Assembly (NCBI GenBank): GCA_964016885.1
Contig: OZ024742.1
Location: forward strand, 85,932,001-85,996,000
Origin: Eledone cirrhosa
Lineage: Eukaryota
Direction of reading: 5' to 3'
DNA: 64,000 bases
Below, piece by piece: positions 10,469 through 55,213 of this stretch; within the stretch, counting starts at the first letter, position 1, and each line of letters begins with the position of its first letter. The position numbers and the translations under genes are program-made. Below the pieces are notes generated by a model. That model had not been told where the DNA came from and made no database searches. It was given only the letters and a program-made list of their open reading frames with translations.

Positions 10469-10519
<51 letters not shown>

Positions 10520-10651
10520 GTGAGGTTTTTTTTTACAAAATGAAAAATAACCGAGGTGTCCTACACGAGTGAAAGTATAAAGAAAAAGAGATGAAATCGA
10601 AAATGCAACTGAAGTCTTATTTTTTTTTCAAATATATATATATATTTGGTT

Positions 10652-10689
10652 CCTTTACCGGTTTCGCAGTTCTTCTGCTTTTCAAAAGG
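10652..10689 (-). ncRNA. Minimal type I hammerhead ribozyme motif, U3-A8 core variant (left arm)
   Basis: Reverse complement reads CCTT TTGAAAA GCAG AAGAA CTGC GAAA CCGG TA AAGG. Confidence 0.65.
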
Positions 10690-10759
10690 TGAGTTGAGAT
10701 GGAGGGTCTGTGGTTTTTCTGACATCTGAGAAAAACCACAGACCCTCCATCTCAACTCA

Positions 10760-10797
10760 CCTTTTGAAAAGCAGAAGAACTGCGAAACCGGTAAAGG
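10760..10797 (+). ncRNA. Minimal type I hammerhead ribozyme motif, U3-A8 core variant (right arm)
   Basis: Stem I CCTT/AAGG, core TTGAAAA in place of CTGANGA, stem II GCAG/CTGC, GAAA, palindromic stem III ACCGGT, GUA cleavage triplet. Confidence 0.65.
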
Positions 10798-10900
10798 AAC
10801 CAAATAAATATATATATATTTTTTTAAATATAAGACTTCAGTTGCATTTTCGATTTCATCTCTTTTTCTTTATATATATATATATATATATATATATTTT

Positions 10901-15268: not shown

Positions 15269-15520
15269 TTAGAAAGTGAGGTTTTTTTTACAAAATGAAA
15301 AATAACCGAGGTGTCCTACACGAGTGAAAGTATAAAGAAAAAATGATGGAGGGTCTGTGGTCACATCCGATGTGAGAAAAACCACAGACCCTCCATCTCA
15401 ACTCTACTTTTGAAAAGCAGAAGAACTGCGAAACCGGTAAAGAAACCAAATAAATATATATATATATATTTTTAAATAAGACTCCAATTGCATTTTCGAT
15501 TTCATCTTTTTTTCTTTATA
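15269..15520. mobile_element. Second copy of the palindromic Penelope-like element, most of the left arm deleted
   Basis: Same leader ttagaaagtgagg...cgagtgaaag and same right arm as 10513-10874; hammerhead motif retained at 15407-15442 on +; flanked by (TA)n. Confidence 0.8.
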
Positions 15521-23149: not shown

Positions 23150-25075
23150 AAATAGGCTAAAAATATCAAACAATAACAATAATCAACCAAGGAACATTCC
23201 CTAATAAAAGGGAGGAACACCGCCTATAAAGAAACACCCGACACTCCAACCGCAACTGAGAAGGACTCCTCTTCCCTCTTCAGATCAATGACCCTACTAG
23301 CACATTCTCAGAGAAGGGCCATTCACATGGGCTATTTTAAAGATATTCACCCACGTTTTAACAAATATACAGGAGGGTGGACATCCCTCTCCACCCTTAC
23401 CTTCCATTACAAGTAAGACATGAACAAGTTGTGTAGGGTTGGCCGAAAGGAAGAATGGTCATATCAACCTTGTCAAACACATCTTTCGCTACGGCCACCA
23501 GGCAAAGAAACTAATCTTGTTCTTCCCGACCAACAAACGTTGGTCGGGAAGAACAAGATTGACTTAAAAGAAAGCCAGATCCGTGCCACAGCTGTTCGAC
23601 ATAACTCCACAAGTCAGTAGATCATGGATACTGGGCGAATGCGATCTGCACGCATCTCAGACAGGTTCATTCAACCGTGAAACCGTCAATATAGAATTCA
23701 TCTCTAATTGGCAGTTAAATGTGAGCTATTTCTGGAAATAATCCATATTCCATGGTCGAATGTCTGTGGAAACAGACTGATCAGTTCGATTTTCTGGACA
23801 CATATACCCTTTCACAGAGCTTGATAGCACTTGCACACCCACTAATCCTATATAGAATTCTGACTTTATTGTCGCTTAGTAGAAGGCAGTGAGAGCCTGG
23901 CAATATTACAGAGGCCAGGTGCCACATGTTTTGGACTCTTCTTGATAAATTACTGCAACTCAGTCAAATAGACGGGAGAAAACAGTCTGTCTCGCAACTT
24001 GTGAGCACACCCGTTTGCTGTTTACGAATATCAGAAGATTAAATAGCGCCAGCGCATATTTACCCATCAACAGCCATGGCATGCCCAGCACTCAGTGAAA
24101 AGGTTGCTGACAGAAGATTGACCACATCTCCATATGAAACTTTTCCATCGGAATGAATTGGAAGATAAAGCGTTCCAATTTGTGAGATGGAAACGAGGGC
24201 AAGGTACGACGATTAGGCCTTATTACATGAATAATGTGAAGTACGCGTTAGCTGCCGACCCACGGCATTTCAGTGATACCGTCATGTAGCACATTTCTGG
24301 GGTGAGTGTAGCCAACCTCTTCCTTACCACGTCCCCCTTCTTATGCACTCGGATATTTGTACAGTACGTGAGACAAGCCATTTTACCAGTCACTGAGTCG
24401 AGAAGCAGCCCGCGCAGATCAACGGCTTTGAGTTACCTCTCCAAGCGCCAAGCTGCAAACTCACCGAATATTCCATTTTTTTTTTTTTGTCCCTTCAACA
24501 TTTTATATCATCCTAAGAGGGTGTAGACCACCTTTATATCTGAGTTGTACGACACAAACTTAGTGATACTGACCGCATAGACATATGCAGTCCTTCTATA
24601 TCCTAGCTCAAGCTAGATCCCCTGTAATAGCTTCAATTTTGGCAGTAAAGGCTCGAGCAGCAATACCCACAGGAGGATGGAGAGAGGGCACCACTAACAA
24701 AGCTATCCTGTGAACTGAAACGGTGCCAGTTGCTGAGCTTACTTTGACCAGCGAATAGATGCTGTTGTGCATTGCAGATGTTCAACTTCTGAAGACGGAG
24801 CTGAAACCAGCTGCTTTGGAAACAGTCTCCCAATATTGTTGAGGCTATCAAAATATTTCGATTTATCTAAATTAATCATTTACCCAACAAAGCTTTATTT
24901 ACACAATTTCTCCATGATATTTCATCTAAGGTTAAGATTGTCGTATATGGACCTGGTTGAGATTGCGTAAGTTGACACCTCCCCTACCAAATGCTCGACG
25001 ACAAGCGCAAGCCGCTTATCTTACACCTTCGCCAACATTTTAAACTCTGTGTTTAGTAGAGTGAAGGGTCTGAAA
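23150..25075 (-). mobile_element. Old decayed L1-Tx1 element (RT to 3' UTR)
   Basis: Minus strand at about 25075 reads FRPFTLLNTEFKMLAKV*DKRLALVVEHLVG; near 23310-23360 it matches the aaggtgggtgaat...gtgaatgggcc ORF2 end of the + strand copies. Confidence 0.8.
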
Positions 25076-25200
25076 TACTCCCGTTCTGTTGCCAGTTGCT
25101 ATAGACCATGTCGAGGGGTACATAGAGCTAGTGTGGCATATCTATGCTAATTTGATATGGCAGACCATACGAACATGTTTACATGCGTTTTATACAAAAT

Positions 25201-25385
25201 ATTATTGTTTCTACTTTTGGCACAAGGCCAGCAATTAACCCAGTGTATTACTGGTACTTTATTTTATCGACCGTGAGGATGAAAGGCAAAGTCAACCTCG
25301 GCGGGATTTGAACTCAGACCATAAATGGCCGTAATTATTTGCTGCGAAGCATGGCGTCCGACCCTCTTCCTATACTGCCAATTCA
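25201..25385 (-). mobile_element. tRNA-derived SINE, full length
   Basis: Same B box, core and tail as 12367-12545. Confidence 0.9.
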
Positions 25386-25499
25386 CTAAAATATAATGGC
25401 GTCACGAATAAAGGCTGGTGTTATTTGCTGTTTACAGCACTCAGCATTTGCTGGAGAGAGACGCAGCAGTGTGTCCATGTAGGAACTGAAATTTGCTAA

Positions 25500-25779
25500 A
25501 CATTCACTTTAAGCTGGCTCATCTGGAGAAGAGAGCGGTCCTCTCTTCATTTGCCTTTGGAGCGTTTGGTGGTTAATAATTTGTGAGGTTACTGAAGCGC
25601 CCCCGTTTTGTATTTTCCCTACTGGGAAGTTTATTTTTGTAATTCATTTGTTTAATTTTATTAGCTAATTTGTTTTTTATTTAATTTTATTGTAAACCAC
25701 CACTATCCCTGTCCATTGTATTGACCCGTATATCACCGTATTTGGGTTAATAACGAAATTGTTATTATTATTATTATTA
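25500..25779 (+). mobile_element. L1-Tx1 3' UTR fragment with (ATT)n tail
   Basis: ttgtaaaccaccactatccctgtccattgtattg...ggttaataacgaaat matches the 3' end at 40051-40124. Confidence 0.7.
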
Positions 25780-25780
25780 C

Positions 25781-27516: not shown

Positions 27517-27537
27517 AATAATAATTATTATTATTAT

Positions 27538-29060
27538 CGTTCTTTGAGTCCAGTCATTGATGATATTTAACCGGAAAGTTTGTTGAAATGAATATCAAGA
27601 CGCTTCCGGCAGCCACAGATATTCAGGCTTTATCGGAGGGTTCTTGCTGTTCTCAGTAGGCATGCCTTTTGAAGTGTTCCAAAAAACGGGACTTGACTAA
27701 TCTTCTTTAACCATCCTTGGAAACTCTTTGAGATAGTACCTAGTGCGCCTATGACAATCGAGACGACATTGATTTCATGGCAGTTCCAAATCATTTTTAA
27801 CACCCAATTTAAATCCTGGTGTCGGTTAATTTTTTCCCCTCTCATTTTCCTGCTCTCTCGTGTCAAATGGGCAGGCTACATCTACAATCAGGCACGATCT
27901 CTGTTCCTTGTCGAAAACTACCAGGTCAGGCCTATTGTGTTCCAGTTTCTTGTCCGTCTGTATCCTAAAATCCCATAGCAGCTTCACCTGATTCTTTTCT
28001 ATCAGCGACTCTGGCTTATGCTCATACCACTTCTCCGAATGTGGTAAATTGTTTACTCTGCATAGATGCCAGTGGCTTACCCTGCCTATCACATCATGTC
28101 TCCAGCGTTTGTAGTGTGTCTGGGCTTGGTGTTTACACTCGGATACAATGTGAGCCACAGTCTCCTCTCTCTCTCCACATATTCTACACAGTGGGCTAGC
28201 CTCCTCCTTGTAAATATGGTGTTTCAGCCACTTCGGTTTGAGGGCCTGCTCCTGCGCAGCCATTAGCATTCCTTCCGTAACCTTTTTAAAGGTGTGCTCT
28301 TTTCAACCAGTTCCATGTCTGTGGATCTCTAAATTCAGTTTTCTCAAAGTAGGCAATATGAAGGGATATTTCATGAAGGTTGCTTTTTCTCCTTGTTATT
28401 TCCTCCTTGGACAACCCCAGGTCTATTGTCCTCTCTTTCAGTACAGTTCTGAGCATTGGCTCCTTACTATCAGTCACGTAATTGTGTAGGTTGTTTATTC
28501 TCCATCTGAACACAGTCCTCTATGCTGATAAGATCTCTTCCACCTTCAGATCTCCTTAAGTAGAGTCTATCGACATCACACCTCTTGTGGAACATGTAGA
28601 TAGTCAATAGCTTCCTAGTCTTCCTATCCATTTCTTTTTGTTCAGCAACATTCCATCTCAGAATTCCCGCACTGTACCTAATAATAGACACAGCTCGGGA
28701 ATTTACTGCACATATGGCATTCATACTGTTCAGATGTGACTTTAATACGCTCCTTACTCTCCGAATGTATTCAGATCTTATCAATTCCTTCATTTATTTG
28801 TTCTTGATGTCATCAGCCTCCAGTACAGCCAAATACTTGTATCCTTCTTCAGTATCAATTTCCTTTATCATCTCACCTGTTGGTACCTGGATTCCGTTAC
28901 TTCTGCTCAATTTACCCCTCTTCATCACAAGGACTCCACACTTACTAATACCAAATTGCATACATATTTGATTACACTCGGATACAATGTGAGCCACAGT
29001 CTCCTCTCTCTCTCCACAGATCGTGCACAGTGGGCTAGCCCCCTCCTTGTTAATATGGTG
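27538..29060 (-). mobile_element. R4/Dong family A, copy 2, 5'-truncated, with extra zinc-knuckle segment at its 5' end
   Basis: LMAAQEQAL, CRICGEREETVAHIVSEC, LWDFRIQTDKKLEHNRPDLVV (PD..D endonuclease), IVIGALG, LQKACL; flanked by (ATT)n. Confidence 0.92.
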
Positions 29061-29090
29061 ATTAATATTATTATTATTATTATTATTATA

Positions 29091-32000
29091 ATTGCATTTA
29101 TCTTGCTTTATGTTTATACGAGTTATCACCAAGTCACCACCAGTTAACCCAAGAGAAAACATGGTCCGCCATGTTCAAGAAAGAACATACATACACACAC
29201 ATGCATCTTTAGGTGTTTAGACTTGTGATGTACTTATATCGACAGAATCCTACTTAGTATATGGGCAGTTCCCATTAGTACTATCTTTTGTATTTCTCCT
29301 ATACGGGGGTTTCCTGGGATTTGCGGTAAGTAATCATTAGACCCCTTAGGTATCATTCCGAGAGCGCCTACAACCACTGGTATTGTTTTAGTTCTCAATT
29401 TCCAAATTTTTCCAATTTCTCTCTCCAGGTTCTTATATTTGCTCAATTTTTCAAATGTTTTTATAGATACGTTCTTGTCTATTGGAACGGACATATCAAT
29501 TAGCAGGCATACCCTCTTTTTAAAGTCCTTCAGTATTATGTCAGGTATTTTTGCATCTATGTTTTGGTCTGTTTGGATACTAAAGTTCCACAAGATTGAG
29601 ATGTGATCTTTTTTAAGTATGGGAGGTGGTTGATGCTCCCACCAATTCTTTTGATGGGGCAGGTCAAAATGCTTACGCATTATCTAATGTATGTATTGTG
29701 CAGCTCTGTCACGCCTGTTTAGGTATTGGGTTGGAGCTATAGGACTGCACATTGAAATTATATGATCAATGGTCTCTGGTTGTTTTTTACATACGGCATA
29801 ATGGGCTGCATCCATTTTTTATTATGTTGGCTTGGTAATTCTTTGTTGGCAGACACTGATCTTGTGCTGATATAATCAATCCTTCAGGCTCCGATTTCAG
29901 TTCAGAGGATGTCAACCACTGATGGGTTAAAGTTTTGTCAACATCAGGATTGTTAGCTCGCTCTGGGTATTTTCCATACAGAGGCTTTTTTTGCCATTTC
30001 TTAGCCAGTTTCTGTAGCAATTCTTTCTTTGCAGTTACTTTTACCTGCTTTGCTTTTTCTGTGTTTTCCACATCAGCAGTAAATTGGACTTCTGAAATTT
30101 GTAGTCCATTACTGTATCTGTGTGCATCTTTTGTGATGGAGTATGATCTTTTGATGCTTTCGTGTTTCAAAACGAGTTTGATCATCCAATCATGTGATTC
30201 CCTTAGATATGTAGATAATCCAATTGTTGCAGTTTTCAACGCAATGTCTAACTGTATTAACCCACGTCCTCCTTCTTTCCTAGGGAGATATATTATATCT
30301 GTATCTGCCTTAGGGTGATGCATTCTGTGCATGGTTAATAACTTTCCAATTTTTGTATCGAGCCTACGGATCTCTGTGCTTGACCAGTTGATGACATTGT
30401 AACTGTAGGTTATTACCGGTATGGCAAGCATTTTTATGGCATCGATCCTATTCCTTGCATTCACTTCCGTTCTTAAGATTGCTCTTACTCTGCGGTAACA
30501 TTCCTTCCTTATCCTTTCCCTCATTGTCGAGTGCTTGATTCCGTCTCCTTCACAAACTCCTAGATATTTGTAAGATTTTTCTTGATCAAGTTCTCTTATC
30601 ACATTCCCCGATCAAGATTAATATCTGAACTTTTCAGCAGCTTTCCTCTGGTGAAGGTTGCTTTGGCGCATTTATCTAGTCCAAACTCCATGATAATGTC
30701 ATCACTGAACTGATCCACAATGGATAATGGCCCTTGCAATTGTTCATCATTTTTTGCAAATAGTTTCAGGTCATCCATGTAGAACAAATGATTAATGGTT
30801 TTGTGATATACTTTATATCCATGTTTTGTTTCATTGAGCATTTTAACTTAATGGTATAAGTGCGATGCAGAATAAAAGCGGTGATAAAGAGTCACCCTGA
30901 AAAATTCTACAATTAATATTAAGTTCTCCAGCTTCCAGTGATTCTTTTTCACTATTCAAAAGGAGTGTCGTTTTCCATGTCTTCATACTGAATGACAAAA
31001 ACCTCCTGACAACGGGGGATATTTTGAAAATCTCTAAACATGTTTCAATCCAACTGTATTGAATGCTTTTTTATAATATTTTCAAGCAATTGATAGATTT
31101 TTGTGTCTATTATGACAATCTTCCAGTATCATTTTGTTAACCAAAAGCTGATCCTTACACCCATATGAGCCTCGTTTACACCCTTTCTGCTCATTGGGAA
31201 ATAGGTCATTTGTTATCAGGTGGTCATATGTATATTCAGTTAGGAATGATGTTAAAATGTTATACATTGTGGTAAAGCAAGTTATCGGTCTGTAATTTTT
31301 GGGATTGTTTTTCTCATCATTCTTCGGAAGCAGGAATGTAATGCCGTTAACTAGCATTGATGATATGTTTTCTGTCTCCTTAACAATTTCATTGTAAAGT
31401 TGGGCTAACAGCTCATGAGACTCTGTGAAGGCATTTATCCAAAAATTTGGTATTTTGTCTTTTCCTGGGGATTTCCATTTGCTGGTTTTTCTAAGAGCCA
31501 AACGCAACTGTTCAACTGTTATATTTTCCCATATTTGTTCCTCAAGGTGAGCTGTATCTTTCATTTGTCTGTCTGTCCATGGGGCATGTATATTATGAAC
31601 TTTTTCTTCGGCTCAGATCTTATCCCAGAATTCTTGCACTTCCTCCTTGGGTGGTATTTATTTAGCAGTTATTGTTGACATGCCAATTTTTCTGTAGAAG
31701 TTTCTTTGGTTGTTTTTCAACATATTATTGTCCTTAAAGAATCCAGATCGTTTTTCAAAGCGCCTTATACGAGCAGCTTTGGCTGACACTTTGCTTGATT
31801 ATTTTTATCAGCATGTCTATGTCACTGGTTGATTTTATACCGTACTTTCTTTTCAATTTTCCAAGTTTAGTTTGTTTAACATGTTCACCTACTTTGTAGT
31901 TTGTTAACATTTCTATGTCAGATCGTAGAAGGTTTATCTGGCGATTGATGTTCTCTTGCCAAGTAGATTTCTTGTGGGAATTCCTTTGTTTTTTTATTTT

Positions 32001-33045
32001 CACTCCACATAAATGAGTGGTGACTTTAGCCGATGCATAATAGAGATGATTTAGATCAGTAATGTTTGGTTTGTTTGTGATGATAATGTTTTTGAGAATG
32101 ATGTTAGTCTTGTGTATTATCTTTTGGTTCTGTTTGGAGTTCTGGATCTTAGGGAGGGTGTCTTGTTTCCCAATGTCAGATTCTTTCATTTTCATCCATT
32201 CGATCATAATTTCATCCTTCAAGTTGGCAAGTTCATTCTCATTCATTTCTTTATCATTTACGATCTCATTGTTTTCATTTTGAGTTTCATCTTGAGCATG
32301 CACTCCCTCCACTTTTTCGATCCTTTCTTTAATTTGTTCTGCTGTCAGGGATTCCGCCCCAACCCTGGGCTTCGAAGTGTTACAATTTACCTCGTTTTCA
32401 CTGACACATGTTTCATTTTCCCTTCGCTAACTGTGTGCTAATAGCTTGATTGATCTATTTCTATATCAGTTAGTAACTTTTTTTTAACAACATTTCTTCG
32501 TATATTGGCTAGATTGTTACTGTCAATATAGCCTCTGTTTTCGGGATGTTTCTTTTTCCAGTTGATATATGTCTGTTCTGTATTCGATGTATTTGATGGG
32601 TGGTACATGGCAGTGTAGAAAGCCTCAAGGACTTCTTTATTATCTTGCCTTGACCATTTTTCTCTCTTTTTCTTTGGATTTCTTGGTGGTGAGCATGGAG
32701 GGCCAACAGCAGGAGTATTACGGTCATGGGAGGTCTCCAGCTCCGAATTGATGGGAAGGTTTGAACCATTAGCTGATTTTTCGACCCCAGTCTGGTTCCT
32801 CTTTTAGGGACGCGGGCCTTTTTGACCCGGGTGACGGCCGATCCGGTATGAGATTTTATCATTTGACATTTACTTTATTTTGTCGCGTGTTATCCTTATT
32901 CGCCAAGGGATAATCATATCGTGTTACCACTTCTAGGACGAGTGTCCACCAAGACTAGTGGGGTCGTCCACCCCTAGAGACACGGCTATTCTCCCTCGGC
33001 CGCCATCCCGGTATTTCTTGGTCACGGGGTTTTCTTTTTTGTCGT
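29091..33045 (-). mobile_element. R4/Dong family B, full-length, single long ORF (about 32869 to 29234) broken by frameshifts and stops
   Basis: Ordered motifs WKSPGKD, NYRPITC, EQKGC, GIFQGDSLSP-like, HLFYMDDLKLF, YKYLG, AQDQ, CCHC knuckle, PDIIL, PVVVGALG, IQKIVL; about 170-nt 5' UTR. Confidence 0.95.
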
Positions 33046-33099
33046 TTTTTAAATTGTTATTATCATGAGTGGTTCCTTAATGTGAGCATTGCGTGGCTT

Positions 33100-33957
33100 A
33101 AGAATGAAATTATTAATAATATAATATACTTTTTGCTGAAGTTGCCTGTTATTGTTGTTGGCTATATCGGCGGTGGTGATGGTTTTTTTTCTATTGTTGG
33201 TGGGGAAGGGGAGAGCCAGCAGTGCCATTGTTGTTGAGATTTGACCAAGTCAATAAGTCAAATCTATTTATATATTTTGCTAGCCTCTCCCTTTTCTCGT
33301 GATAGCACGACCTTCCCCTTCCTTAAGTTAACAGAAGGCAATGGGGGAATAGTTTTGGTAGTAATGAAGGCGAGTTGGCGGCTATGATGAGATAGTGGTA
33401 GCAATGATGGATGGAGTGGTCGAGACGGTGACTATAGTGATGGCGTTGTCGTTACTGAGTTTTGTTGAATAGAATGTAGCTAGTATGCGTTTGTTTGATC
33501 TGTGTATCTATGCGGTTTGTCGCGTATATTTAATATATGTGTTGACATATTTTTCTTAATATTTGAATTAAAAATTTTGGGAAAACTTGAGACACAATAA
33601 TAATAGTAATTATTATTATTATTATGCTGGGATTGGTGGTGATGGTGGTGGTGGTGAGATTGCCGTTATCTGGCTGTTGTATTTAGTGTACACAGAGGGG
33701 TGATGGGATAGGTGGTGTATCTAGTTTGTGGTGTTGGTGAAATTGCTGTTATTTGGCTGTTCTATATAGTGTAGACAGAGGGGGTTTTCTTCCATTTATA
33801 ACCATTTTCTTTTTTGAATATAAAATTTATAATACAAAATTGAATATTTGAGCGATATAACAGGATATTATGAATCCGAATTTTTTGAGAGTTGAGTCTG
33901 TTGCTTTATGTATCATTTGTACTAATAATTGTTATATCACAATTGTTTTAAATATGT
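33100..33957 (-). repeat. Unclassified repeat X, copy 1 (ACC/AAC-rich on - strand)
   Basis: Shares tctatttatatattttg, actatagtgatgg, gttatttggctgttc and the terminal tatcacaattgttttaaatatg with 43500-44042; internal 50-bp duplication at 33651-33700 / 33733-33784; strand is inferred. Confidence 0.7.
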
Positions 33958-33970
33958 TATTATTATTATT

Positions 33971-36640
33971 ACCAATTCTTCAACGCAAAACACGAAGGCT
34001 GCGTTATAAGAGCTAGAGCGCGTGCTCTGAAACACGAGGGGAGAAAAGCCGTCCAATGGGCACAGGTGGCAGAGCCGCGACGTGGCAACAAAGCCACAAT
34101 TCGGTCTTTGTCTGAACAAAACGGGTGCGTGATGCTCGAACCCGAGCGGATGTGTGAAGCCTTTCAGCAGCACTTTGCTGAACTGTTCGGGAGCGGCGGC
34201 GGCCCGGATAGGGGCATGGACTTCAGTGCATACCTCGACGGACTGCCTCGGCTCTCGACGACCACAGCAGTGTTGCGAAAAGCAAATAACAGCGGGTGAA
34301 ATATGGGAAGCGATGGCTACTGCACAAGGGGTAAATCTCCAGGTTTGGATGGTCTGCCCTACGAGCTTTATGCATTTATGCCAGACTTGTTCGGTGACCT
34401 CTTGGCAGACGTCTACTGCAACTGGCAGCAGAACGGGAGCATTCCCAGTTTTGTGAGCCGGGGAGCAGTGGCCCTGCTGAGGAAAGACCCGAACAAGGGG
34501 GATGTTATCGATAATTTCAGGCCAATAACACTGCTAAACGCAGAGTTCAAGATTCTGGCCAGGGGTTAGCAACGAGGTTGGCGCTTGTCGTCAAGGGTCT
34601 GGTGGGAGTGGCGTAGACATGCGCCATTCCGGACAGATCCATACACGGCAACCTTCACCTCATGCGATACATCATAGAGAGGGTGGTTAAGGAACCTGCA
34701 TGGGTGGGGCCCTGATCAACTTGAATCAATCCAAAGCATTCGATAGGGTCGACTATCGGTAGCTGGCGGCGTTCGCGAGGCAGCCGGTTTCGGGCCCGTT
34801 TCCAGGGGTTGGATCGCAGCAATGTACAACGACATCTGCTCAGTTGTGAGGGTGAACGGTCACCTGTCGTAGCCGTTCAGCATCATGCGCTCAGTCGGCC
34901 AGGGTTGTCCCCGCTCGCTCCTCTTGTACGTATTTGCTCTCGAGCCGTTACTGCCCAGACTGGGGGCGATGAGGGGCGTCCCACGCGAACTAGGATGCGG
35001 GAAATCCGAGTCGGCTTACGCTGACGACGTCAGCGTGGTGGTGTCGAGCACCAGACACGTCCAGATGCTCGGCACCGCTCTCAAGGAATACGAAGCAGCG
35101 GCCGGAGCAAAGATGAACCAGGAAAAGTCGGTGGGCTTGCAACTCGGCACCTGGAGAGACAAGTCCATGCCGTCCGACAGCGTCGTTGGGCGTTGGACGG
35201 ACGGACCGGTTAAACTGCTCGGGGTCTGGTTCGGACCGGACCTCCAGATGGAGAAAAACTCGAACAAGGTGAAGAGCAGGGTGGCCTCCTTCACCCAGAA
35301 ATGGGCCGAGAGGAAGCTGTCCCTGAAAGCCCGGGCGGAGGTGGCGAATGCATACATCGCATCCGTCATCTGCTACCGCCACACCGTCGTCCTTTGCTCC
35401 AGCCCAACTCTCACCAAAATGGAGCGCCTCTTCTTCCGCTTTTTGTGGAAGCGACGTGCTGTCAACACCCGTGGCGTGGAGGACTGGGCATGCCATGGCT
35501 GATGATGCGCAAACATACGCTTAGGCTGCGACATCTCTGGTGCTTCCTTGATGGTGAACAGGTGTGGTCGCCGTTCGCCAGTCACGTTTTCCCACAGCTC
35601 GTCTCCTTGACAGAGCTGCAGTCCTAGGTCAGGAAAAGACCCAGGGATAGCGCTTGGAAACTGGAATGTCTCAAGGCGCTCATTGCCCTGTGCCAGCTGG
35701 GCACCAGTATCGGTGGAACATCCACCTCGGCGTTCTATAGAGAACTAGTGGAGGGGAAGAGCGCCGACATTCTCGGAGAGATCCTGGACGTCGAAGAGGA
35801 TCAGCTGTTTTCTCTCCTCCGGAGAACTTTCTGCCCGGGGCCTATGGATAACATCCACAAATCCCTGGCCGGGCAGTGCTACCGGGGAGCGCTGCCGGTT
35901 CGAGATAAGCTCTACAGGCACGGAAGTGCCGTCAGCCGATCCTGTCCGTGAGCGTACAGAGCGACGAAATCGTCGTACACGCCCTCGTTCAGTGCCCGAG
36001 CATTGCTGACATGTGGAGCTATGTCGAACAGATGCAGTGGCGTGTAGAACTGATCCGTTTGTCGACTGAGTCTATTATGCAGATGATCTCACCGTCTTCC
36101 TTCGAGGGGAAGGGCAGGCGGTTTTTATCTGCTTGGTGGCCATGGCGAAAGAGATTGTGTGGTGGACAAATGTTAAAAGTGTTAAATACAGACACTTTCC
36201 TCTTCGGCGAATCCCTAATTAACTTTTTCAAGTTTCACTTGAAGAGGAACATCAGGGTGGAGAGGCAAGTGCTGCCTTCTAGCAAGTTTGTTGAAAGGAG
36301 GGTGAATATATGTCTGTAGTTTGAATATATGTCTGTAGTTTGAGAGATGGAAAAATTGAGAGAGGCCGCATGCACTGGTGGGCAGGGTGGCCGTGGTCTT
36401 TTGTGTGGATTTCGCCACGAGTAACCTTCGGAGGTTTCCCCCCGATTGGGGAATTTTTCATTGTTTCAATTTTCATTTTTATTGTTTATATATATATGTT
36501 TCTTTGTCCTTTTTTTTCTTTTCTTATATAAATAATAGAAAATATTTACACGCACAAAATTCACATCATACCGTCCTCTACCGTCCTGTGCCGTCTGTAA
36601 TGTTTTTCTTGATGTCAGCCCTTGTGGCCAATAAAGAAAT

Positions 36641-36641
<1 letters not shown>
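33971..36641 (+). mobile_element. L1-Tx1 retrotransposon copy 1, 5'-truncated
   Basis: KSPGLDGLPYE, NFRPITLLN, QGCP, YADD, C-terminal zinc-finger remnant, 3' cccttgtggccaataaa; (ATT)n on both sides. Confidence 0.93.
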
Positions 36642-36672
<31 letters not shown>

Positions 36673-36679
36673 TTATTAT

Positions 36680-39600
36680 CGAGGTAAGGTCGAGCTTCCG
36701 GGTCCCTGACGGTACTTTGGTGGTCTTGGATGTGAGCAGTAGCGAAGGTGTTGCCTTTAGAGTGCTGGCCGTCTACGCCCCTACAGGGGCCGGACGACCC
36801 AACTTCTTTAGGCGCCTGGAGACCTTTCTGGGTACGTCTCGCCCTTTACTGTTAGCGGGGGACTGGGTGGCATGTTAGAAGCACGCTGGGATTGTGTGGG
36901 AGTAGCCGATAGGAGCGGGGGGTGCAAAATCCTCAAGCACCTACTCAGCCAGTTCCAACTGTCTGACAGGTATCGACTAGATTTCCCCCAATGTGCCAGT
37001 ATGGACATGGACCAACCGAATGGGGTCATCTAGATCATATATGGACAGGATCTTCATTAGGAAAATAGATAGAAATAGTGTGGGCTGTCCACTTTTTAAA
37101 ACGGTCGCCTATTCAGATCACAAATTTGTGATCTGTACCGTCGACCTAAATAAAACGCGTAGGTTAGGACCGGGTTACTGGAAGCTGAACATGTCAATTC
37201 CGGCACGTAAGGCTTACAGGGACCGAGTCAAAATTTAGTTAAGCAAAAGTTGACAGGGGGGATCATCAACAACAGATGGTGGGGAGCGGCTCTCAAAAGA
37301 GAGATTAGAGTAACTTCGAAAGAGTTCAGCAAAGAACTAGCGTTAGAGAAAAATGGAAGGGAGCGGGAGCTGGTAGATAAGTTAGACGAGGCTATTTGTA
37401 GTGGCATCGTGCTAGCGGCGAGAATGGCATTAGACCATTTCTTCAATGCCAAACACGAAGGTTACATTGTCAGAGCTAAGGCACGTGCACTGAGAAACGA
37501 GGGAACTAAAGCTGTTCGATGGGTCCGCGTGGCGGAGGCGCAGCGTGGTAATAAAACCACAATTCGGTCTTTACCGGACCGAGACGGACACGAGATAAGC
37601 AATTCCAAGCGGATGTGTGAGGCCTTTCGCCAGCACTTTGCTCGGTTGTTCAGGGTGAGTGGCGAGTCAGAGAGAGTAGCGAATTTCAGCCCCTACCTTG
37701 ACGGCTTGCCGCGCATCTCGACAATCGACGCTGAAGGCTGCGAAAGGCCGATTACTTCAGCCGAAATTCAGGATTTCCTTGTTGGCTGCATGAGACGCAA
37801 GTCACCCGGTTTGGATGGCCTGCCCTACGAGCTTTACGTAAATATGCCAGACTTGTTCTCCGAACTCCTCGAAGCACTCTACTGCAACTGGTACAGAATG
37901 GGAGTATTCCTAGTTCTGTGAGCAGGCGAGTGGTGACGCTGATAAGGAAAGACGAGAACAAGAGGGATACATTAGACAACTTCAGGCCCATAACTCTTCT
38001 TAACACAGATTTTAAGATTTTGGCCAGGGTGTTAGCAAAGAGATTGGCGCTTGTCGTCGAGGATTTGGTTGAGGAGGCGCAAACTTGCGCAATCCCAGCC
38101 AGGTCCATACATGACAACCTCCACCTCATGCGCTACATCATATAGAGGGTAGGGTGTAAACCTGGCTTCGGTGGGGCACTGATGAATTTAGATCAATCGA
38201 AAGCATTCGATAGGGTCAACCATCGGTATCTGGAGTTTGTCCTCAAAGCACCTGGCTGCGGCCCTGTCTTTAGAAGCTGTATCGTTGCAATGCACAGCGG
38301 CACACGCTCGGTGGTCAAGGTTAATGGCCACCTCTTGGAACCATTTCGGCTCTCCGGATCGGTCCGTCAAGGGGACCCTCTCTCTTCCCATCTGTACGTA
38401 TTGACTCTCGAGCCTCTACTGCGGAAGCTGGAGCTGTTGCAAGGCATCCCGATCGAACCGGGACGTGGAAAGGCGGTGTCGGCTTATGCGGACGACATCA
38501 CTGTGATGGTGTCGAACACCTCAGAAATCGAGGTGGTCGGCACCTATTGAAGGTTGACAGGAGCCAAACTTAACCCGGAAATGTCGGTGGGCTTGCAGCT
38601 CGGAACCTGGAGAGGCAAACCCATGCCGTCCAACAGCGTCGTGGGGCGCCGGACGGACGGACCGGTAAAGTTGCTCGGGGTTTGCTTCGGACCAGACCTC
38701 CAGGTGGAAAAGAAGTGGGACGAGGTAACGAGCAGAGTAGCCAGTCTCACCCAAAAATGGGCTGGGAGGAAGCTATCACTGAAAGGTCGAGCGGAGGGGG
38801 CGAATGCGTACATCGCGTCCGTCATCTACTACCGCCTAACCGTCGTGCCTTGCCCCCGTCCGCGCCTCGTCAAGTTGGAACGGCTCCTTTTCAAATTCTT
38901 GTGGAGGGGACAAGTTCCGTTGGTGAGGCGGTCCATCTGCTGGCAGCACCCTCTACGCCGACGGCTGGGCATGCCGTGGCTAATGATGCGCAGACATTCG
39001 TTGAGGCTGCGACATCTCCAGATATTCTGCCTCAATGGTGAACAGGTGTGGTCGCCGTTTATCAGACGGGCCTTTCCGCAGCTCATTTCTTTGACTGAGT
39101 TGCAGTCCTGGGTCAAGAAGAGACCGAGACTGGGTGACTGGCACCTGGAATGTTGCCAGGCACTCACTGCCCTCTATCAAGCGGGCGATGCGATCAGTGG
39201 AACTTCCACTCTTGAGTTCTAGAGAGGATTAGTGGTGGGCAAGTGCGATGACGCACTCAGACAAGCTTTGGGCCTCGACGAAGTCGAATTGATCAGTCTG
39301 TCCTGGAGGACTTTTGAGCCGGGGACGATGGACAATTTCCAGAAATCCCTCGCTTGGCAGTGCTACCGGGGGCACAGCCGGTTCGGGATAAACTCTACAG
39401 GCACGGAAGTGCTGCCAGACGGACCTGCCCAAGATGCGCACAGAACAACGAAACCGTTTTGCACGCACTTGTCCAATGTCCGTGCATTACTGACCTGTGG
39501 AGATATGTCGAACAGCTACTGTCGCGTGTGGAACGAATCCGGCTATCGGCCGAGTCCATAGTGAAGATCGAGCCGCCACCTTCCTTAGGTCAAGAAGAGC

Positions 39601-40124
39601 AGAACATTTTCCTCTGTCTGGTGGCAGTTGCGAAACAGATTATATGGTGGACCAGGTTGAAAGGACTAAAGACAGACACTTTTCTCTTCGGCCAATCCCT
39701 CATCAACTTCTTCAAGTTTCACCTGGAATGGAGGGTGAGGGTGGAGAGAGAAGTGCTGCCCCCCAGTACATTTGCTAAAAGGTGGGTGAATGTTGCGAGA
39801 ATGGCTCGTGTGAATGGGCCTACTCTGACCATGCGCCTATAGGCTAGCTAACTTGAGGAGAGGGATGATCTCCCTGGGTGCCCTAGAAGCGCAGGGTGGT
39901 TCAGGATTGGTGGGGTACCCGAATCACCCCAGGGTCGTCCACCCCCTTTCGGGGAATTTATTTTGTTATATTTATGCATAGTTTATTTTATATTTTTATA
40001 TGTTCATTGTTAAATTAGTCTTGCCATTTTTGCACATTTACTCGACCTTATTGTAAACCCCCACTGTCCCTGTCTTTGTATTGTCCCCTACATGTAGGCC
40101 CTTGTGGATAATAAATGAAATCAG
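36680..40124 (+). mobile_element. L1-Tx1 copy 2, truncated within the AP endonuclease domain, diverged subfamily
   Basis: AVYAP, GDW, DRIF, SDH (APE); DQSKAFDRV, RQGDPLS, YADD (RT); CPRC...ETVLHALVQC knuckle; aataaa then (ATT)n. Confidence 0.94.
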
Positions 40125-40147
40125 TATTATTATTATTATTAGTAGTA

Positions 40148-40200
40148 GTACCTGTAATGCACTGGGTAATTGCTGGCCTTGTGCCTGAATTGGAAACAAT
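40148..40200 (+). mobile_element. SINE 3' fragment
   Basis: gtacctgtaatgcactgggtaattgctggccttgtgcctgaattggaaacaat then (TAT)n. Confidence 0.8.
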
Positions 40201-40212
40201 TATTATTATTAT

Positions 40213-43115
40213 TGTTCTCTGAGTTTCAATCATTGACGTTATTTAACTGGAAAGTTCGTTGAAATGAATATCAAGCCGCTCCCTGCAGCCTCAGATGTTC
40301 AGGACGTACCGGAGGGTTCTTGCTGTCCCCAGCAAGCAGGCCTTTTGAAGTGTTCCAAAAAGCGGTGCTGGACTAATTTTCTTTCACCATCGTTGGAAAC
40401 TCTTTGAGAGAGTTCCCGGTACGCCTATGACAATCGGCACTACTCCGATTTCATGGCAGTTCCAAATCCTTTTTGCCTCCCACTTTAAGTCCTGGTATCG
40501 GTTAATTTTCTCCTTCTCCTTTTCTTGACCTCTCGTGTCAACTGGACAGGCTACATCTACAATCAGACGGGATCATTTTCCTTGTCCAAAACCACCAGGT
40601 CACGCCTATTGTGTTCCAGTTTCTTATCCGTCTCTATCCTAAAATCCCATAGCACCTTCACCTGATCGTTTTCTGTCACCGACTCTGCCTTATGCTCATA
40701 CCACTTCTCAGAATGTCGTAAATTGTTTACTTTGCATAGGTACCAGTGGATAACCTTGTCCATCACATCATGTTTCCAGCCTTTATAATGAGTCTGGGCT
40801 AGGTGTTTACACTCGGATACAATGTGAGCCACAGTCTCCTCCCTCTCTCCACAGATCCTACACAGGGGGCTAGCCTGCTCCTTGTAAATATGGTGTTTTA
40901 CCCACTTCGTTTTGAGTGCCTGTTCTTGTGCAGCCATTAGCATTCCTTCTGTAGCCTTTGTAAGGTCTCCTCTTTTCAACCAGTTCCATGTCTGTGCATC
41001 TCTGAATTCAGTTTTCTCAAAGAAGGTACTATGAAGGGATTTTTCATGAAGGTTGCTCTTCCTCCTTGTTGCTATTTCCTCCTTGGACATCCGCTGGTCT
41101 ATTGTTCTCTCCTTCAGTACAATTGTGAGCATTAGCTCCCTACGGTCGGTCATGTATTCGTGTAGGTTGGTTTTCTCCATCTGAACACAGTCCTCTATGC
41201 TGATAAGACCTCTTCCACTGCAGTATAATGGTCAGGGGTATCAGGGCAAGGACACACACCAGAGGAGACAGACTATCTCCCTTGAAGATACCACTCTTGA
41301 TCTTCCCGCCTCCCAAGGATTCCACACCCGATGTTAATTCTGTTTCCCAGGACCTCATACTTTTGCTCAACAACTGTTTGATGTTATCTGCCACCTTGAA
41401 GATCTCTAGGCTTTTGGTTATCCTAGAATGAGGTACCATGTCGAATGCCTTTTTGTAGTCTATCCATCCCATGGCAAGACCGGTGTGTCTCCTCTTTCAA
41501 TTCCTCATTACCATTTTATCAATATGTAGCTGGTCTTTTGTACCACGGGAGTTCTTTCGGCATCCTTTCTGTTCATCCAGTAACAAGTTGTTTGTGTGTA
41601 GGTGATGGTAGATTTCCTCAGACACAATGCTTATTAAGAGTTTCCACATTACGGATAGACATGTGATAGGTCTACAGTTGGTATCATCATTACCCTTGGT
41701 TCGGTCTGTCATTATCAGAACTGTGGTAACTTTAGTTTTTTGGCCTGCCCTTTAAGAGTTTCAACTGTGATGCTTAAATCAGTTTGTTGGTGTGCTTGTT
41801 CACTAATCTTCTTTTGTACCGTCTCAATCCACACCGTCTGATTATTATTTTCAACATCCTGCTCCCATATTCCTCTCCAGAATGTCTTAGTCTGTTCCGC
41901 TTCAGGGATCAAGTCGTTGCATCTTTCTTTCCATTCAAGCTGCCCAAACAGCATCTTCTGGTTGTTGTCAAACATGTGTTCTGTCTATAATGACTGACTC
42001 TGCTCTCATACCGCCTAATTTTTGCACTCTTTGCTACAATGCGTTCCTTCAGTTCCTCTATGATAATATTTAGCTTTTTGTCCTGGTTTTGTACTTTATT
42101 TCCAGTCTATTTTTAATGTCTATGCTTTGTAGTGTCCCACTCAGTAGAGACTCAAGGTTTCCAATGTCATTTCTCATTTCCCTGATTTGACCATTCGGGC
42201 GTTTTTCCACCAAGGTTCTGATCTTTCTTGTTTGTTTTTTCCTCTCGTTTTTATGCCAAGTAATTTCCTCACCGCATTTGCTGTTGCTTTGAGGATATTG
42301 TTGCATTGGTTAAGGTTTCTCGCCTCAAGGTATGGGATGAATTTGTTTACCTTAGCTGTTGTTTCTTTTAACTTTTTTCCAGTTTACAAATCTTAGGTTC
42401 ATAGGTTTCCCACTATCGTTTTTCATTTCATCTACCATATAGTTTAGGATATCAACCAAATTTTGTCCTAGCCCGTCAGCATTCATTTCCTCAATGGCAG
42501 GATCTTTGTTTCAGGTGTTATTTATGTCAGCATTCAGATCATTGTCTGCTTCGGATGCTTCCTTCGGTCTCTCAACCTCTTCACCTTCATTTCCCACTGT
42601 CTCGATTGCCTGGCATACTCCACTATCCATTTCCAACCTAATCTCTCTGGTGAGTTCCTCCAGTTCCAGCTCGCTTATCCATCCATTAGTTCTTATTACC
42701 CGAGCCTGCCCGGCCAATATTTGTTCATCTAATTTAAATAGACCAATCTCGTTCCAGATGTTATGCATCCGTTTCCTATAGCCTTTTTCCTTGGGGTTAC
42801 TCTTCAGGTAACATAGCATAACAGTTCTATTCAATTCTTTCGTCTAGTTGGTTCTTGTCACTTTCCTTCTTCTTCTTCCTCCAACACCAGCAGTATTTGG
42901 ATGACAGCCACGTCCCTGCTGCTGGGCCAGGGAGCACAGGCTGAGTGAGAGTCTGTCGCAATACGTTCCTATCTCCTCTTCACCGTTATTCGAACTGTTT
43001 AGGTTCGACATTTAAACACTCATATCGAGGATTGGTGAATGTATGGTTACATAATCGCCGGTGATTTCATCACCTCCCGGTGATTTTAGCGTGGCACCAT
43101 CACGCTGTAGACGAA
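40213..43115 (-). mobile_element. R4/Dong family A, copy 3, 5'-complete with internal deletion in RT
   Basis: ATG at 43011, N-terminal NRTVMLCY...GYRKRMHNIW, EQKGC, WIDYKKAFDMVPH, GIFKGDSLSP, then a jump at about 41220 to the post-thumb region, CCHC knuckle and endonuclease. Confidence 0.93.
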
Positions 43116-43399
43116 CATAGATAAATAAACAAATAAATAGATAAAAACTTTAAAAAACAAACATAAGTTTCATTGTAATGTTTGAATGTCTGACTTAGTT
43201 TTTTTTTTATTGTTTTTTCCTTTGCGTTTTTCGTTTTTCAAGGCCAGTAAGATCAGTTACTAGTGTTTTTGTTGCTGCTGTGGATAAGGGAAGTAGGGGT
43301 TGTTGTGTTCAAAACATTTGAAAGTTGTGTTTGTTGTTGCGTTTGCTTCTGTCTGTGTTCTGTTCTATAATTTTTCGACTTGTTGCTTATCATTGTTAT

Positions 43400-43490
43400 T
43401 TTGCCTTTCATCCTTACGTGGCCGACAAAACAAAGCACCAGCAACACACCTGGACAATTGCTGGCCCCGTGCCGAAAGCAGAAACAATTA
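43400..43490 (+). mobile_element. SINE core and tail fragment with clustered T>C substitutions
   Basis: Aligns base by base to the other SINE copies, with 10 T>C changes between 43422 and 43479. Confidence 0.88.
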
Positions 43491-43499
43491 TTATTATTA

Positions 43500-44042
43500 A
43501 ATTAAAGTTTTGATTTGACATCGTTTAACCTAAGCATTTTCAGAGAGTTTAGAGATACTACAATAATAATTATTTAGGTGTTGTTGTTGGTGTTGTTGGT
43601 GTTTGACCGGGTCACTAACCCAGTCTATTTATATATTTTGATACCTTCCTCGCTTCTTTTCATGTGTAGCGGCACTACTACCATCCCTCTCTTAACAGGA
43701 GGTAGTGAGGAAATAGTGGTGGTAGCGATGATGCAGTGGTGGCGGTGATGATGGGATACCAGTACTATAGTGATGGTGGTTGTTTGTATTTGGCTAGATT
43801 TTTTTATGTTAGTGGTGATGGTGGCGGTGGCGGCGGTGGTGGTGTTGGTGGTGAAGTTATTTGGCTGTTCTTTTTTAGCCATTTCCCTTTCTGACTATAA
43901 CATTTCTGATACGAAATTAAATATTAAATATTGGACCCCTATGCCATAATGTGATGCGTTATCACTTCCTGAGTGTTAAGACTGATATCATATGTTCCAT
44001 TTGTAATAAGAATTATTCTATCACAATTGTTTTAAATATGAA
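43500..44042 (-). repeat. Unclassified repeat X, copy 2
   Basis: Homologous blocks and same terminus as 33100-33957; short Thr-rich ORF 43882-43625 on -; abuts (ATT)n at 44044-44097. Confidence 0.7.
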
Positions 44043-44043
44043 A

Positions 44044-44097
<54 letters not shown>

Positions 44098-44098
<1 letters not shown>

Positions 44099-53790: not shown

Positions 53791-55213
53791 TCCATTACTG
53801 TATCTTTGTGCATCTTTTGTAATGGAATATGATCTTTTGATGCTTTCGTGTTTCAAAACGAGTTTGATCATCCAATCATGTGATTACCTTAGATATGTAG
53901 ATAATCCAATTGTTGCAGTTTTCAACGCAATGTCTAACTGGATTAACCCACGTCCTCCTTCTTTCCTAGGGAGATATATTCTATCTATATCTGCCTTAGG
54001 GTGATGAATTCTGTGCATGGTTAAGAACTTTCGAATTTTTGTATCGAGCCTACGGATCTCTGGGCTTGACCAGTTGATGACATTGTAACTGTAGGTTACT
54101 ACTGGTATGGCAAGCGTGTTTATGGCATCGATCCTATTCCTTGCATTCAATTCCGTTCTTAAAATTGCTCTTACTCTGCGGTAACATTCCTTCCTTATCC
54201 TTTCCCTCATTGTCGAGTGCTTGATTCCGTCTCCTTCACAAACACCTAGATATTTGTAAGTTTTTTCTTGATCAAGTTCTCTTATTACGTTCCCCCGATC
54301 AAGATTAATGTCTGAACTCTTCAGCAGTTTTCCTCTGGTGAACGTTGCTTTGGCGCATTTATCTAGTCCAAACTCCATTTTAATGTCATCACTGAACTGC
54401 TCCACAGTGGATAATAGCCCTTGCAATTGTTCATCATTTTTTGCAAATAGTTTCAGATCATCCATGTGGAACAGGTGATTAATGGTTTTGTCTGAGACTT
54501 TATATCCATGTTTTGTTTCATTGAGCATTTTACTTAATGGTATAAGTGCGATGCAGAATAAAAGCGGTGATAAAGAGTCACCCTGAAAAATTCCACAATT
54601 AATATTAACTTCTCCAGCTTCCAGTGATTTTGTTTCACTATTCAAAAGGAGTGTCGTTTTCCATGTCTTCATACTGAATGAAAAAAACCTCCCGACAACG
54701 GGGGATATTTTGAAATTCTCTAAACATTTTTTAATCCAACTGTGTGGCGAACTATCGAATGCTTTTTTATAATCTATCCAAGCAATCGATAGATTTTTGT
54801 GTCTATTATGACAATCTTCCAGTATCATTTTGTTAACCAGAAGCTGATCCTTACAGCCATATGAGCCTCGTTTACACCCTTTCTGCTCAATGGGAAATAG
54901 GTCATTTGTTATCAGGTGGTCATATGTGTATTCAGTTAGGACTGATGTTAACATTTTATACATTGTGGTCAAGCAAGTTATCGGTCAGTAATTTTTGTGA
55001 TTGTTTGTCTCATCATTCTTCGGGAGCAGGCATGTAATGCCGTTAACTAGCCATGATGGTATCTTTTCTGGCTTCTTAACTATTTCATTGTAAAGTTGGG
55101 CTAACAGCTCATTAGAATCTGTGAAGGCATTTATCCAAAGTTTTGAATTTTGTCTTTTCCTGGGGATTTCCATTTGCTGTTTTTTCTTAGAGCCAAGCGC
55201 AACTGTTCAACTG

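Follow-up and report, generated by a model that had tools for sequence, protein, structure and literature searches.

A repeat shared by the leaders of two Dong-type elements in an ATT-repeat insertion pile of Eledone cirrhosa and its possible origin by 5' transduction

Introduction

How do two retrotransposons of different families come to be preceded by the same repeat? The question is raised by a 64,000-nt stretch of the Eledone cirrhosa genome (the window, in which all positions below are counted), where two Dong-type elements lie in an ATT-repeat insertion pile, each with a repeat, here termed X, upstream on the minus strand. The pile comprises more than a dozen insertions, and their orientation is constant within each family. 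A sequence-only reading of the locus had proposed that X provides a transcription start and that X and Dong move together as chimeras. Unit 1 consists of X1 and Dong1 (29090-33957), and unit 2 of X2, a SINE, a spacer and Dong2 (40214-44040), with the SINE piece and the 290-nt non-Dong spacer (43110-43399) lying between X2 and Dong2. The features are as follows.

29090..33046, minus strand: Dong1, a decayed, 5'-complete element of Dong/R4 type with reverse transcriptase (RT), CCHC and restriction-like endonuclease; a 5' UTR of about 177 nt precedes the ATG at 32869
33047..33228, minus strand: inner part of leader 1, without homology to leader 2
about 33055-33066: degenerate short TAA tract adjoining the Dong1 5' end, ATT score 8
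33229..33957, minus strand: X1, with AT-rich head, CA-rich middle (internal duplication and extra sequence) and conserved core; multicopy
33263..33279, minus strand: X1 copy of a 17-mer common to X1 and X2, with a TATA-like box inside
33957..33971: ATT/TAA tract that adjoins the X1 head and forms the outer boundary of unit 1; ATT score 15
33972-36641 and 36680-40124 (region 33972..40124), plus strand: two 5'-truncated Tx1/L1-type copies with ATT tails, between the units
40214..43110, minus strand: Dong2, of a second Dong family, with internal deletions and an uncertain 5' boundary; ATG at 43023
43110..43399, minus strand: A-rich spacer with a T-rich stretch at its end, 290 nt, non-Dong; multicopy
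43400..43486, plus strand: 3' end of a 5'-truncated SINE that lies antisense to Dong; a T-to-C cluster (A-to-G on the minus strand) falls between 43422 and 43479
43487..43590, minus strand: ATT tail of the SINE and inner part of leader 2
43591..44040, minus strand: X2, with head, Thr-rich frame and core; multicopy
43625..43882, minus strand: Thr-rich frame of X2, 85 aa; no homologue found, no codon periodicity
43624..43640, minus strand: TATA-like 17-mer of X2
44044..44098: (ATT)18 tract adjoining the X2 head; next comes a full-length Tx1 element on the plus strand

Results

Dong1 and Dong2 indeed represent different families, as they share 31-47% amino acid identity and give no blastn match. 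Dong1 is 93.5% identical to a truncated copy at 53792-55213, and Dong2, whose internal deletions leave loose ends at 41220 and 41732, is about 86% identical to truncated copies at 25780 and 27536. Reverse transcriptase was detected in the single ORF of a Dong1-family copy (Pfam RVT_1, E 2.4e-23), while a CCHC knuckle and a PD-(D/E)xK endonuclease were recognised by eye in the translated C-termini, together with weak zf-RVT matches. ATT scores of 14-25 at four intact Dong 3' ends point to insertion into TAA repeats. Judging from structure and target site, both elements probably belong to the Dong/R4 clade (Bombyx Dong, octopus Dong-R4), which likewise combines a single ORF encoding RT, CCHC and restriction-like endonuclease with TAA flanks, and of which Dong-R4 is abundant in octopus (PMC13282606, PMC8967140). 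Both copies had been regarded as 5'-complete, which holds for Dong1, whose 5' UTR and ORF start are homologous to those of L006 (z 25.6); Dong2 retains its ORF start, while its 5' boundary could not be fixed.

Dong relatives start 100-210 nt ahead of the ATG, beside a simple repeat, and no match to X longer than 30 nt was found in 80 such loci, so that X is an addition to Dong and, as had been assumed, lies outside the ordinary Dong 5' UTR. The three truncated Dong copies (3/3) also lack X, as previously stated, which is trivial since their 5' ends are missing. Both tRNA-like A and B boxes occur in 5 of 13 relatives inspected, and Dong-type heads thus vary. A ribozyme in Dong1 was considered and could not be established: an HDV-like descriptor, made after viewing the sequence, gave one match in the window (32981-32894), from which the majority bases differ at 32947 and 32900, Rfam yielded no ribozyme match and nothing credible in 25000-46000, and the fold z values were -1.95 and -0.39. 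Bombyx Dong RNA self-cleaves exactly at its 5' junction (PMC3774820, excerpt); an active ribozyme here would cut X off.

The homology of the two leader blocks was borne out, with 69.8% identity in the head and 70.4% in the core (z 22 and 35; none of 200 shuffles scored as high). Its extent had been set too wide, at 33100 and 43500; the real limits are about 33229 and 43591, and the inner leader segments reach a z of 1.8, equalled by 18 of 200 shuffles. Both blocks begin at the same point, as claimed, with a terminal 22-mer at 33935-33956 and 44019-44040, both on the minus strand. This 22-mer has two matches in the window (at most 3 mismatches), a number given by none of 100 shuffles, and its identity exceeds chance only marginally at 70-72% overall identity (P about 0.04-0.09). 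X1 contains an internal duplication with 83-nt spacing, plus extra sequence. The described succession of an AT-rich leader and a Thr-rich frame is found in X2 (leader of about 160 nt, frame of 85 aa), while the frame is broken in X1, and mismatches between X1 and X2 are spread over the codon positions as 17/20/16 (p 0.78, with no coding control alongside). Elsewhere in the window, blastn found no X other than weak low-complexity matches in Tx1 ORF1; no inverted partner of the X terminus, as in the TIR of a DNA transposon, was seen at up to 3 mismatches, both window matches being on the same strand; and the exact terminus had 0 matches in metagenome contigs. The TATA-like box in the shared 17-mer lies about 30 nt ahead of an initiator-like site, and the homology stops just past the 17-mer, whose conservation is no better than chance (P 0.2-0.4). 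An RNA started at this site, which sits on the Dong-facing side of X, would lack most of X.

The junctions place the outer insertion boundary at the X head rather than at the X/Dong joint. ATT scores of 13-25 were obtained at 14 of the 17 junctions scored, including both X heads, which adjoin ATT/TAA tracts as reported, and the 5' ends of all three truncated Dongs. Lower scores were obtained at Dong1/X1 (8), the SINE 5' end (8) and Dong2/spacer (3), against a background mean of 4. ATT tracts thus mark the outer ends, clean at the X heads and present also where the Dongs end 3', and are absent or weak at the inner joints, with no TAA tract at the Dong2 joint, such that the extra 5' sequence is enclosed by the insertion boundaries, although the simple-repeat flanks give no unique target duplication. 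Against this pattern, a Tx1/Dong fusion at 53791, outside the 17 scored junctions, is also without an ATT tract.

X1 and X2 are both multicopy by read depth; relative to the Dong 5' bins, X1 reaches 0.29-0.37 and X2 about 0.2, depth being, by the tool's own warning, no copy number. As X is covered only 0.2-0.4 times as deeply as Dong 5' ends, it is not on every Dong. Depth in X1 is 43.5k in the head-side bin, which holds simple repeats, versus 27.0k, and the spacer reaches about 1,000 at 43324. Among the joints listed, the X tip is linked elsewhere to an ATT run before a Dong2-type 3' end in 402, 401 and 339 reads (9, 1 and 1 starts), and no listed read bridges either X/Dong joint. The sequence-only reading had named abundance of X as an independent repeat among the findings that would undo it; X is abundant, yet less deeply covered than Dong 5' ends, a level that fits a chimeric subset and an independent repeat alike. 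The adjacency of X and Dong itself amounts to 2/2 copies in one pile in which orientation is fixed per family.

As to its identity, X most likely derives from an L1/Tx1-like element, of which it would be the 5' end, a view resting on layout and composition only. Its AT-rich 5' UTR, ATG and low-complexity ORF1-like start are laid out as in an L1/Tx1 5' end, and the X2 frame (A.38, C.30) agrees in composition with Tx1 ORF1 starts (A.39-.40, C.29-.31). Tx1/L1 elements of the same pile similarly show an AT-rich 5' UTR of 160-210 nt, an ATG, a Thr-rich frame and a PPLP-like motif; in contrast to X, they are oriented on the plus strand, and no significant homology to X was found. Two profiles for the conserved ORF1 domain detect all three Tx1 ORF1s of the window (3/3) and neither X nor the spacer. 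Searches for X peptide homologues gave 0/355, 0/10 and 0/68 candidates and no usable Atlas match, and tblastn of ORF1 relatives against minus-strand X queries gave no match at E 0.01. The X1 core aligns with residues 56-75 of P0003 at a pairwise E of 0.005, with no clear excess over the best shuffled scores. A minus-strand Tx1 piece at 23150-25505 was rejected as the lost body of X, as it begins mid-ORF2 and is one piece for two X copies.

The SINE in leader 2, which provides the strongest evidence, had been described as looking edited, and the count agrees: 13 substitutions occur in 82 columns, and 11 of 25 T columns are C. Read on the minus strand, 11 of 25 A positions have become G, so that 11 of the 13 substitutions are of a single type, A to G on the transcribed strand, as in ADAR hyper-editing clusters. 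The same type was found at 0 of 91 positions in five other SINE copies (Fisher p 6e-9), and 90-nt windows in six other element pairs never reached this skew (best 7/14 and 9/28). U is the 5' neighbour at 7 of 11 changed versus 2 of 14 unchanged sites (p 0.017), and a 5' G precedes 1 of 11. On the 3' side, A follows just 1 of the 11 changed sites, which is no enrichment, while invertebrate hyper-editing prefers A there (PMC5625713, excerpt). One of the 11 sites is common to another SINE copy and one is alignment-ambiguous, and the 11 C positions might alternatively mark a distinct SINE subfamily rather than editing. Since T-to-C changes on the plus strand need a minus-strand RNA, the leader DNA of unit 2 has likely passed through such an RNA. 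Passage through RNA, earlier suggested for the whole unit, thus gains support in unit 2 from the edited antisense SINE; unit 1 has no RNA-passage mark of its own.

Discussion

On balance, we lean slightly towards both units being chimeric insertions, generated by 5' transduction from a predicted promoter borne by a repeat. At a donor site, each Dong would have lain downstream of a copy of X; transcription would have started from the predicted promoter, situated at the X head or above it and perhaps within X, and Dong protein would have copied the whole X-Dong RNA into a TAA tract. Pairing of the antisense SINE with a sense SINE strand may have exposed that part of the leader RNA to ADAR, whose edits reverse transcription would then have fixed in DNA. 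The two Dong families would have acquired X separately.

It is rather improbable that the Dong RT instead finished the Dong RNA and jumped onto an abundant transcript headed by X, entering at the 3' end and copying as far as the 5' end, in which case X would need no donor locus upstream of Dong. A template jump of this kind has been proposed for SINE 5' extensions (PMC4494074, excerpt), and would suit the differing inner ends of the leaders and the Dong2 joint without a TAA tract, while the editing proves only an RNA state of the leader. The degenerate TAA tract at the Dong1 joint argues against a jump, both complete copies (2/2) would have had to jump to one kind of RNA, and the multicopy spacer fits a propagated chimera. 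Likewise improbable is plain nesting, whereby X would be an independent abundant retroposon with the edited SINE, and Dong would have landed later at its inner end, co-oriented through the TAA target. That X is multicopy, that n is 2, and that more than a dozen pile insertions keep one orientation per family would agree with nesting; however, the window contains no remainder of X past the 3' end of either Dong, the leaders have no common tail at their inner ends, and the Dong2 joint lacks the TAA target kept in all three truncated Dongs.

There is a small chance that X represents an ATT-tailed 3' end which belongs to a plus-strand element and was carried passively by minus-strand read-through RNA from further upstream, the 5' junction being resolved at TAA by homology with the target. 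X is T-rich on the plus strand and ends in ATT like Tx1 and SINE 3' ends, and the higher head-side depth of X1, though from a bin with simple repeats, points the same way. Such an orientation had been foreseen as fatal to the original proposal; it is weakened by the absence of AATAAA at the end, unlike in Tx1 3' ends, by 12 comparisons with Tx1 3' UTRs (z at most 2.9), and by the ATG, Thr-rich frame and TATA-like site all facing the minus strand. It is highly improbable that octopus Dong elements ancestrally had X as a long 5' UTR: X stands on both complete copies, and recent O. vulgaris Dong-R4 copies (1129 insertions, 4,732,901 bp; PMC13282606 Table 1) average about 4.2 kb against 3.96 kb for Dong1, yet X is about 70% identical where the ORFs have no DNA match, the true 5' UTRs of Dong1 and Dong2 are unrelated (z -0.8), L006 starts at TAA without X, and depth drops 3- to 5-fold into X.

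For 5' transduction, the mechanism, or that of head exchange, is already known, and the setting is new. SVA 5' transductions, and SVA_F1 with its MAST2 leader, also co-mobilise upstream sequence from an upstream promoter and can found a subfamily (PMC12593883, excerpt); SVA, however, is non-autonomous and L1-driven, and F1 arose from one splicing event, whereas two autonomous families with a repeat-derived leader are concerned here. In crocodilians (SINEU-2 and Tx1-Mar), shared 5' extensions were similarly gained more than once, one of them traced to insertion into another transposon (PMC4494074, excerpt), but those of given size are 31 and 42 nt long or are U1-like heads, and they belong to SINEs, in contrast to the 0.9 kb seen here, which bears an editing mark and precedes autonomous elements that target TAA. 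Mouse L1 families acquire new 5' UTRs and exchange sequence as well (PMC3600994, excerpt); there the new UTR becomes the standard promoter of the family, whereas X seemingly occurs on a minority of Dong 5' ends. Unlike Bombyx Dong, described as self-cleaving at its 5' end (PMC3774820, excerpt), both complete copies here carry a 0.9-kb non-Dong leader, and no ribozyme is established. The literature covered, with subscription papers and Repbase outside its scope, describes neither Dong elements that share a non-Dong leader nor DNA-fixed edited SINEs in octopus.

With considerable doubt, one may go further and regard X as a mobile promoter cassette of about a thousand copies, captured by several unrelated Dong lineages and spreading only as X-Dong chimeras, which would replace host read-through and the 5' ribozyme and whose leaders would preserve traces of germline ADAR hyper-editing fixed in DNA.

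The transcription of microsatellite-targeting elements without an obvious promoter is little studied, and Dong-R4 ranks with the LINEs of most recent activity in octopus (PMC13282606). Should X-Dong chimeras prove recurrent, octopus assemblies would allow a direct test of the promoter source. The edited SINE would be a DNA record of a germline read-through RNA that was hyper-edited and then reinserted, and such A-to-G clusters could be counted genome-wide as marks of transduced sequence.

A leader repeat shared by two Dong families

X, a leader repeat outside Dong, is shared by two Dong/R4-type elements and is a real feature of the window, where its terminal 22-mer occurs twice, both times on the minus strand:

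29090-33046, minus strand: Dong1
33229-33957, minus strand: X1, the X copy upstream of Dong1
40214-43110, minus strand: Dong2
43591-44040, minus strand: X2, the X copy upstream of Dong2

The sequence-only reading had placed homologous leaders 5' of both elements, which holds for X1 and X2 over these extents, with about 70% identity in the head and core blocks (z 22 and 35), while the inner leader segments beyond X showed no relation between leaders 1 and 2 (z 1.8). Exact runs of 22 and 17 nt common to both copies are not clearly above chance at that identity. The two Dong families are indeed distinct, having 31-47% of residues in common and no blastn match. Two segments, a SINE piece of 87 nt and a spacer of 290 nt, intervene between X2 and Dong2.

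Insertion units in the ATT/TAA pile

Both units belong to a 36-kb pile (25510-61150, or roughly 25.5 to 61.1 kb) of insertions into ATT/TAA tracts, in which Tx1/L1-type elements (Tx1) and SINE 3' ends lie on the plus strand and Dong-type elements on the minus strand. Tx1 and Dong thus use the same microsatellite in opposite orientations, and as orientation to the repeat is fixed per family, co-orientation alone says little. Three Tx1 elements in the pile have complete 5' ends. The window's Tx1 ORF1 has three named relatives that are Octopus proteins (best identity 42%), which makes an octopus the probable source of the DNA.

Junctions were scored for ATT at 17 sites, some with a tract in common and excluding the tract-less Tx1/Dong fusion at 53791. 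Scores of 13-25 were obtained at 14 of the 17, among them both X heads and the three truncated Dongs at their 5' ends; Dong1/X1 scored 8, the SINE 5' end 8 and the Dong2/spacer junction 3, where the background averages 4. The natural insertion units are therefore 29090-33957 and 40214-44040. Plain nesting of X and Dong is an unlikely account of their composition.

Several other arrangements were seen. At 53791/53792 the 5' half of a plus-strand Tx1 is fused, with no ATT tract, to a minus-strand Dong whose 3' end is missing; a deletion within the pile is the likely cause. At 23150-25761 a minus-strand Tx1 ORF2 plus 3' UTR piece and a plus-strand Tx1 3' UTR lie head to head, meeting near 25505. 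The arrangement resembles a 5' inversion, but both pieces contain the 3' UTR start; a SINE lies inside it at 25201-25385. The truncated copy 27536-28973 has, at its 5' junction, a 95-nt internal Dong2-family fragment (28969-29063), possibly a template slip. Outside the pile are an old, decayed plus-strand Dong-like element without ATT flanks (4064-5500) and two related TA-rich palindromic, MITE-like segments (10486-10899 and 15242-15545, 88-94% identical).

Probable RNA passage of one unit

The SINE piece in leader 2 carries 13 substitutions in 82 columns and has C at 11 of 25 consensus T columns, one of these 11 sites being changed also in another copy and one alignment-ambiguous; the same change was found at 0 of 91 in five other SINE copies (p 6e-9). 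No window of comparable skew was present in six other element pairs, and the family majority in the reads is T at the first position checked (43441, a loose end). Read on the minus strand the changes are A>G, with U, the 5' neighbour that ADAR prefers, preceding 7/11 changed vs 2/14 unchanged sites (p 0.017). Had the SINE's own RNA been edited, the A>G changes would lie on the plus strand, which argues for minus-strand read-through RNA as the template. The nearest TAA tail downstream of the SINE on that strand belongs to Dong2. According to PMC5625713, hyper-editing is very high in octopus, and invertebrate hyper-editing prefers a 3' A, a preference that the SINE piece does not share. The earlier proposal of passage through RNA gains good support from this antisense cluster, for unit 2 only. 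Template jumping is a doubtful alternative source of the joined units.

Abundance and nature of X

Four runs, three from one sample, were mapped on 32300-44040 at 80% likeness. In one run, summed contig depth, which is no copy number, was 27k and 44k for X1 against 92k and 118k for the Dong1 5' bins, and 35k for the X2 head against 183k for the last full Dong2 bin; long single contigs, among those listed, had depths of 3-15. X is clearly a repeated sequence, with lower depth than the Dong 5' ends. RAD reads connect the tip of X with an ATT run that precedes a Dong2-type 3' end (402, 401 and 339 reads, with 9, 1 and 1 starts), and the tip therefore adjoins ATT at other loci too; none of the read rows listed lay on X/Dong joints. 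That X is a plus-strand tail, passively carried, is rather improbable.

On the minus strand, X has about 160 AT-rich bases, then an ATG and a CA-rich frame whose base composition is as at the Tx1 ORF1 start. Both cores align loosely to residues 56-100 of an O. sinensis ORF1-type protein, not significantly over shuffles; two ORF1 profiles found all three window ORF1s and missed X and the spacer. Homologue searches and Atlas returned no homologues of X, and X showed no codon periodicity. At the end of the homology both copies have a TATA-like box followed, 30 nt further on, by an initiator-like site; such matches number five in the pile, all in X on the minus strand, and 88 in the whole window.

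X and ordinary Dong 5' ends

Eighty related Dong loci contained nothing of X beyond four simple-repeat matches of 23-30 nt. Among the 13 whose 5' regions were inspected, complete relatives have their 5' ends some 100-210 nt upstream of the ATG, adjoining a simple repeat. One (L006) starts directly after (TAA)17, and its match to the 5' UTR and start of the ORF in Dong1 (z 25.6) puts the ordinary Dong1 5' end near 33046; Dong2 has its ORF start, with a 5' boundary somewhere between about 43110 and 43400. The relatives' 5' ends lack X, which makes X an addition rather than part of Dong, in a group with variable heads. An ancestral Dong UTR is a very remote reading of X.

tRNA-like A plus B boxes occur in 5 of the 13 relatives, two of the five near-identical; ARAGORN made a tRNA call in 1 of 17 and Rfam in 1 of 10. 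The 5'-complete relatives with tRNA-like heads straight after the simple repeat are L002 (78-168, called by both programs), L014 (10-90), L017 (23-100), L020 (90-165) and the L061 and L062 5' regions; the L006 and L038 heads differ. Such heads could be internal pol III promoters that autonomous elements carry. Across distant relatives (L006, L014, L017, L018, L020, L038, L061, L062), some 50 nt where the ORF begins (window 32780-32910) are conserved at the DNA level (z 7-26) and may be an RNA signal besides coding sequence. On the minus strand, a pyrimidine-rich, splice-acceptor-like run ending in CAG (43104-43135) lies just before the Dong2 5' hairpins, and the Dong2 frame stays open across it.

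A proposed route

Self-cleavage at the 5' junction, described for Bombyx Dong (PMC3774820), would remove X; no ribozyme was established at the Dong 5' end here. Our literature search found no report of an X-type leader. Other papers describe 5' transduction of SVA from upstream promoters (PMC12593883), repeated 5' extension of SINEU-2 (PMC4494074) and 5' UTR recruitment by mouse L1 (PMC3600994), and report Dong-R4 and L1-Tx1 as abundant in octopus (PMC13282606; PMC8967140; PMC9115989). On balance we lean towards a route in which each Dong would have lain downstream of an X copy at its donor site, been transcribed from the predicted promoter in X or from above it, and been copied as a whole RNA into a TAA tract.
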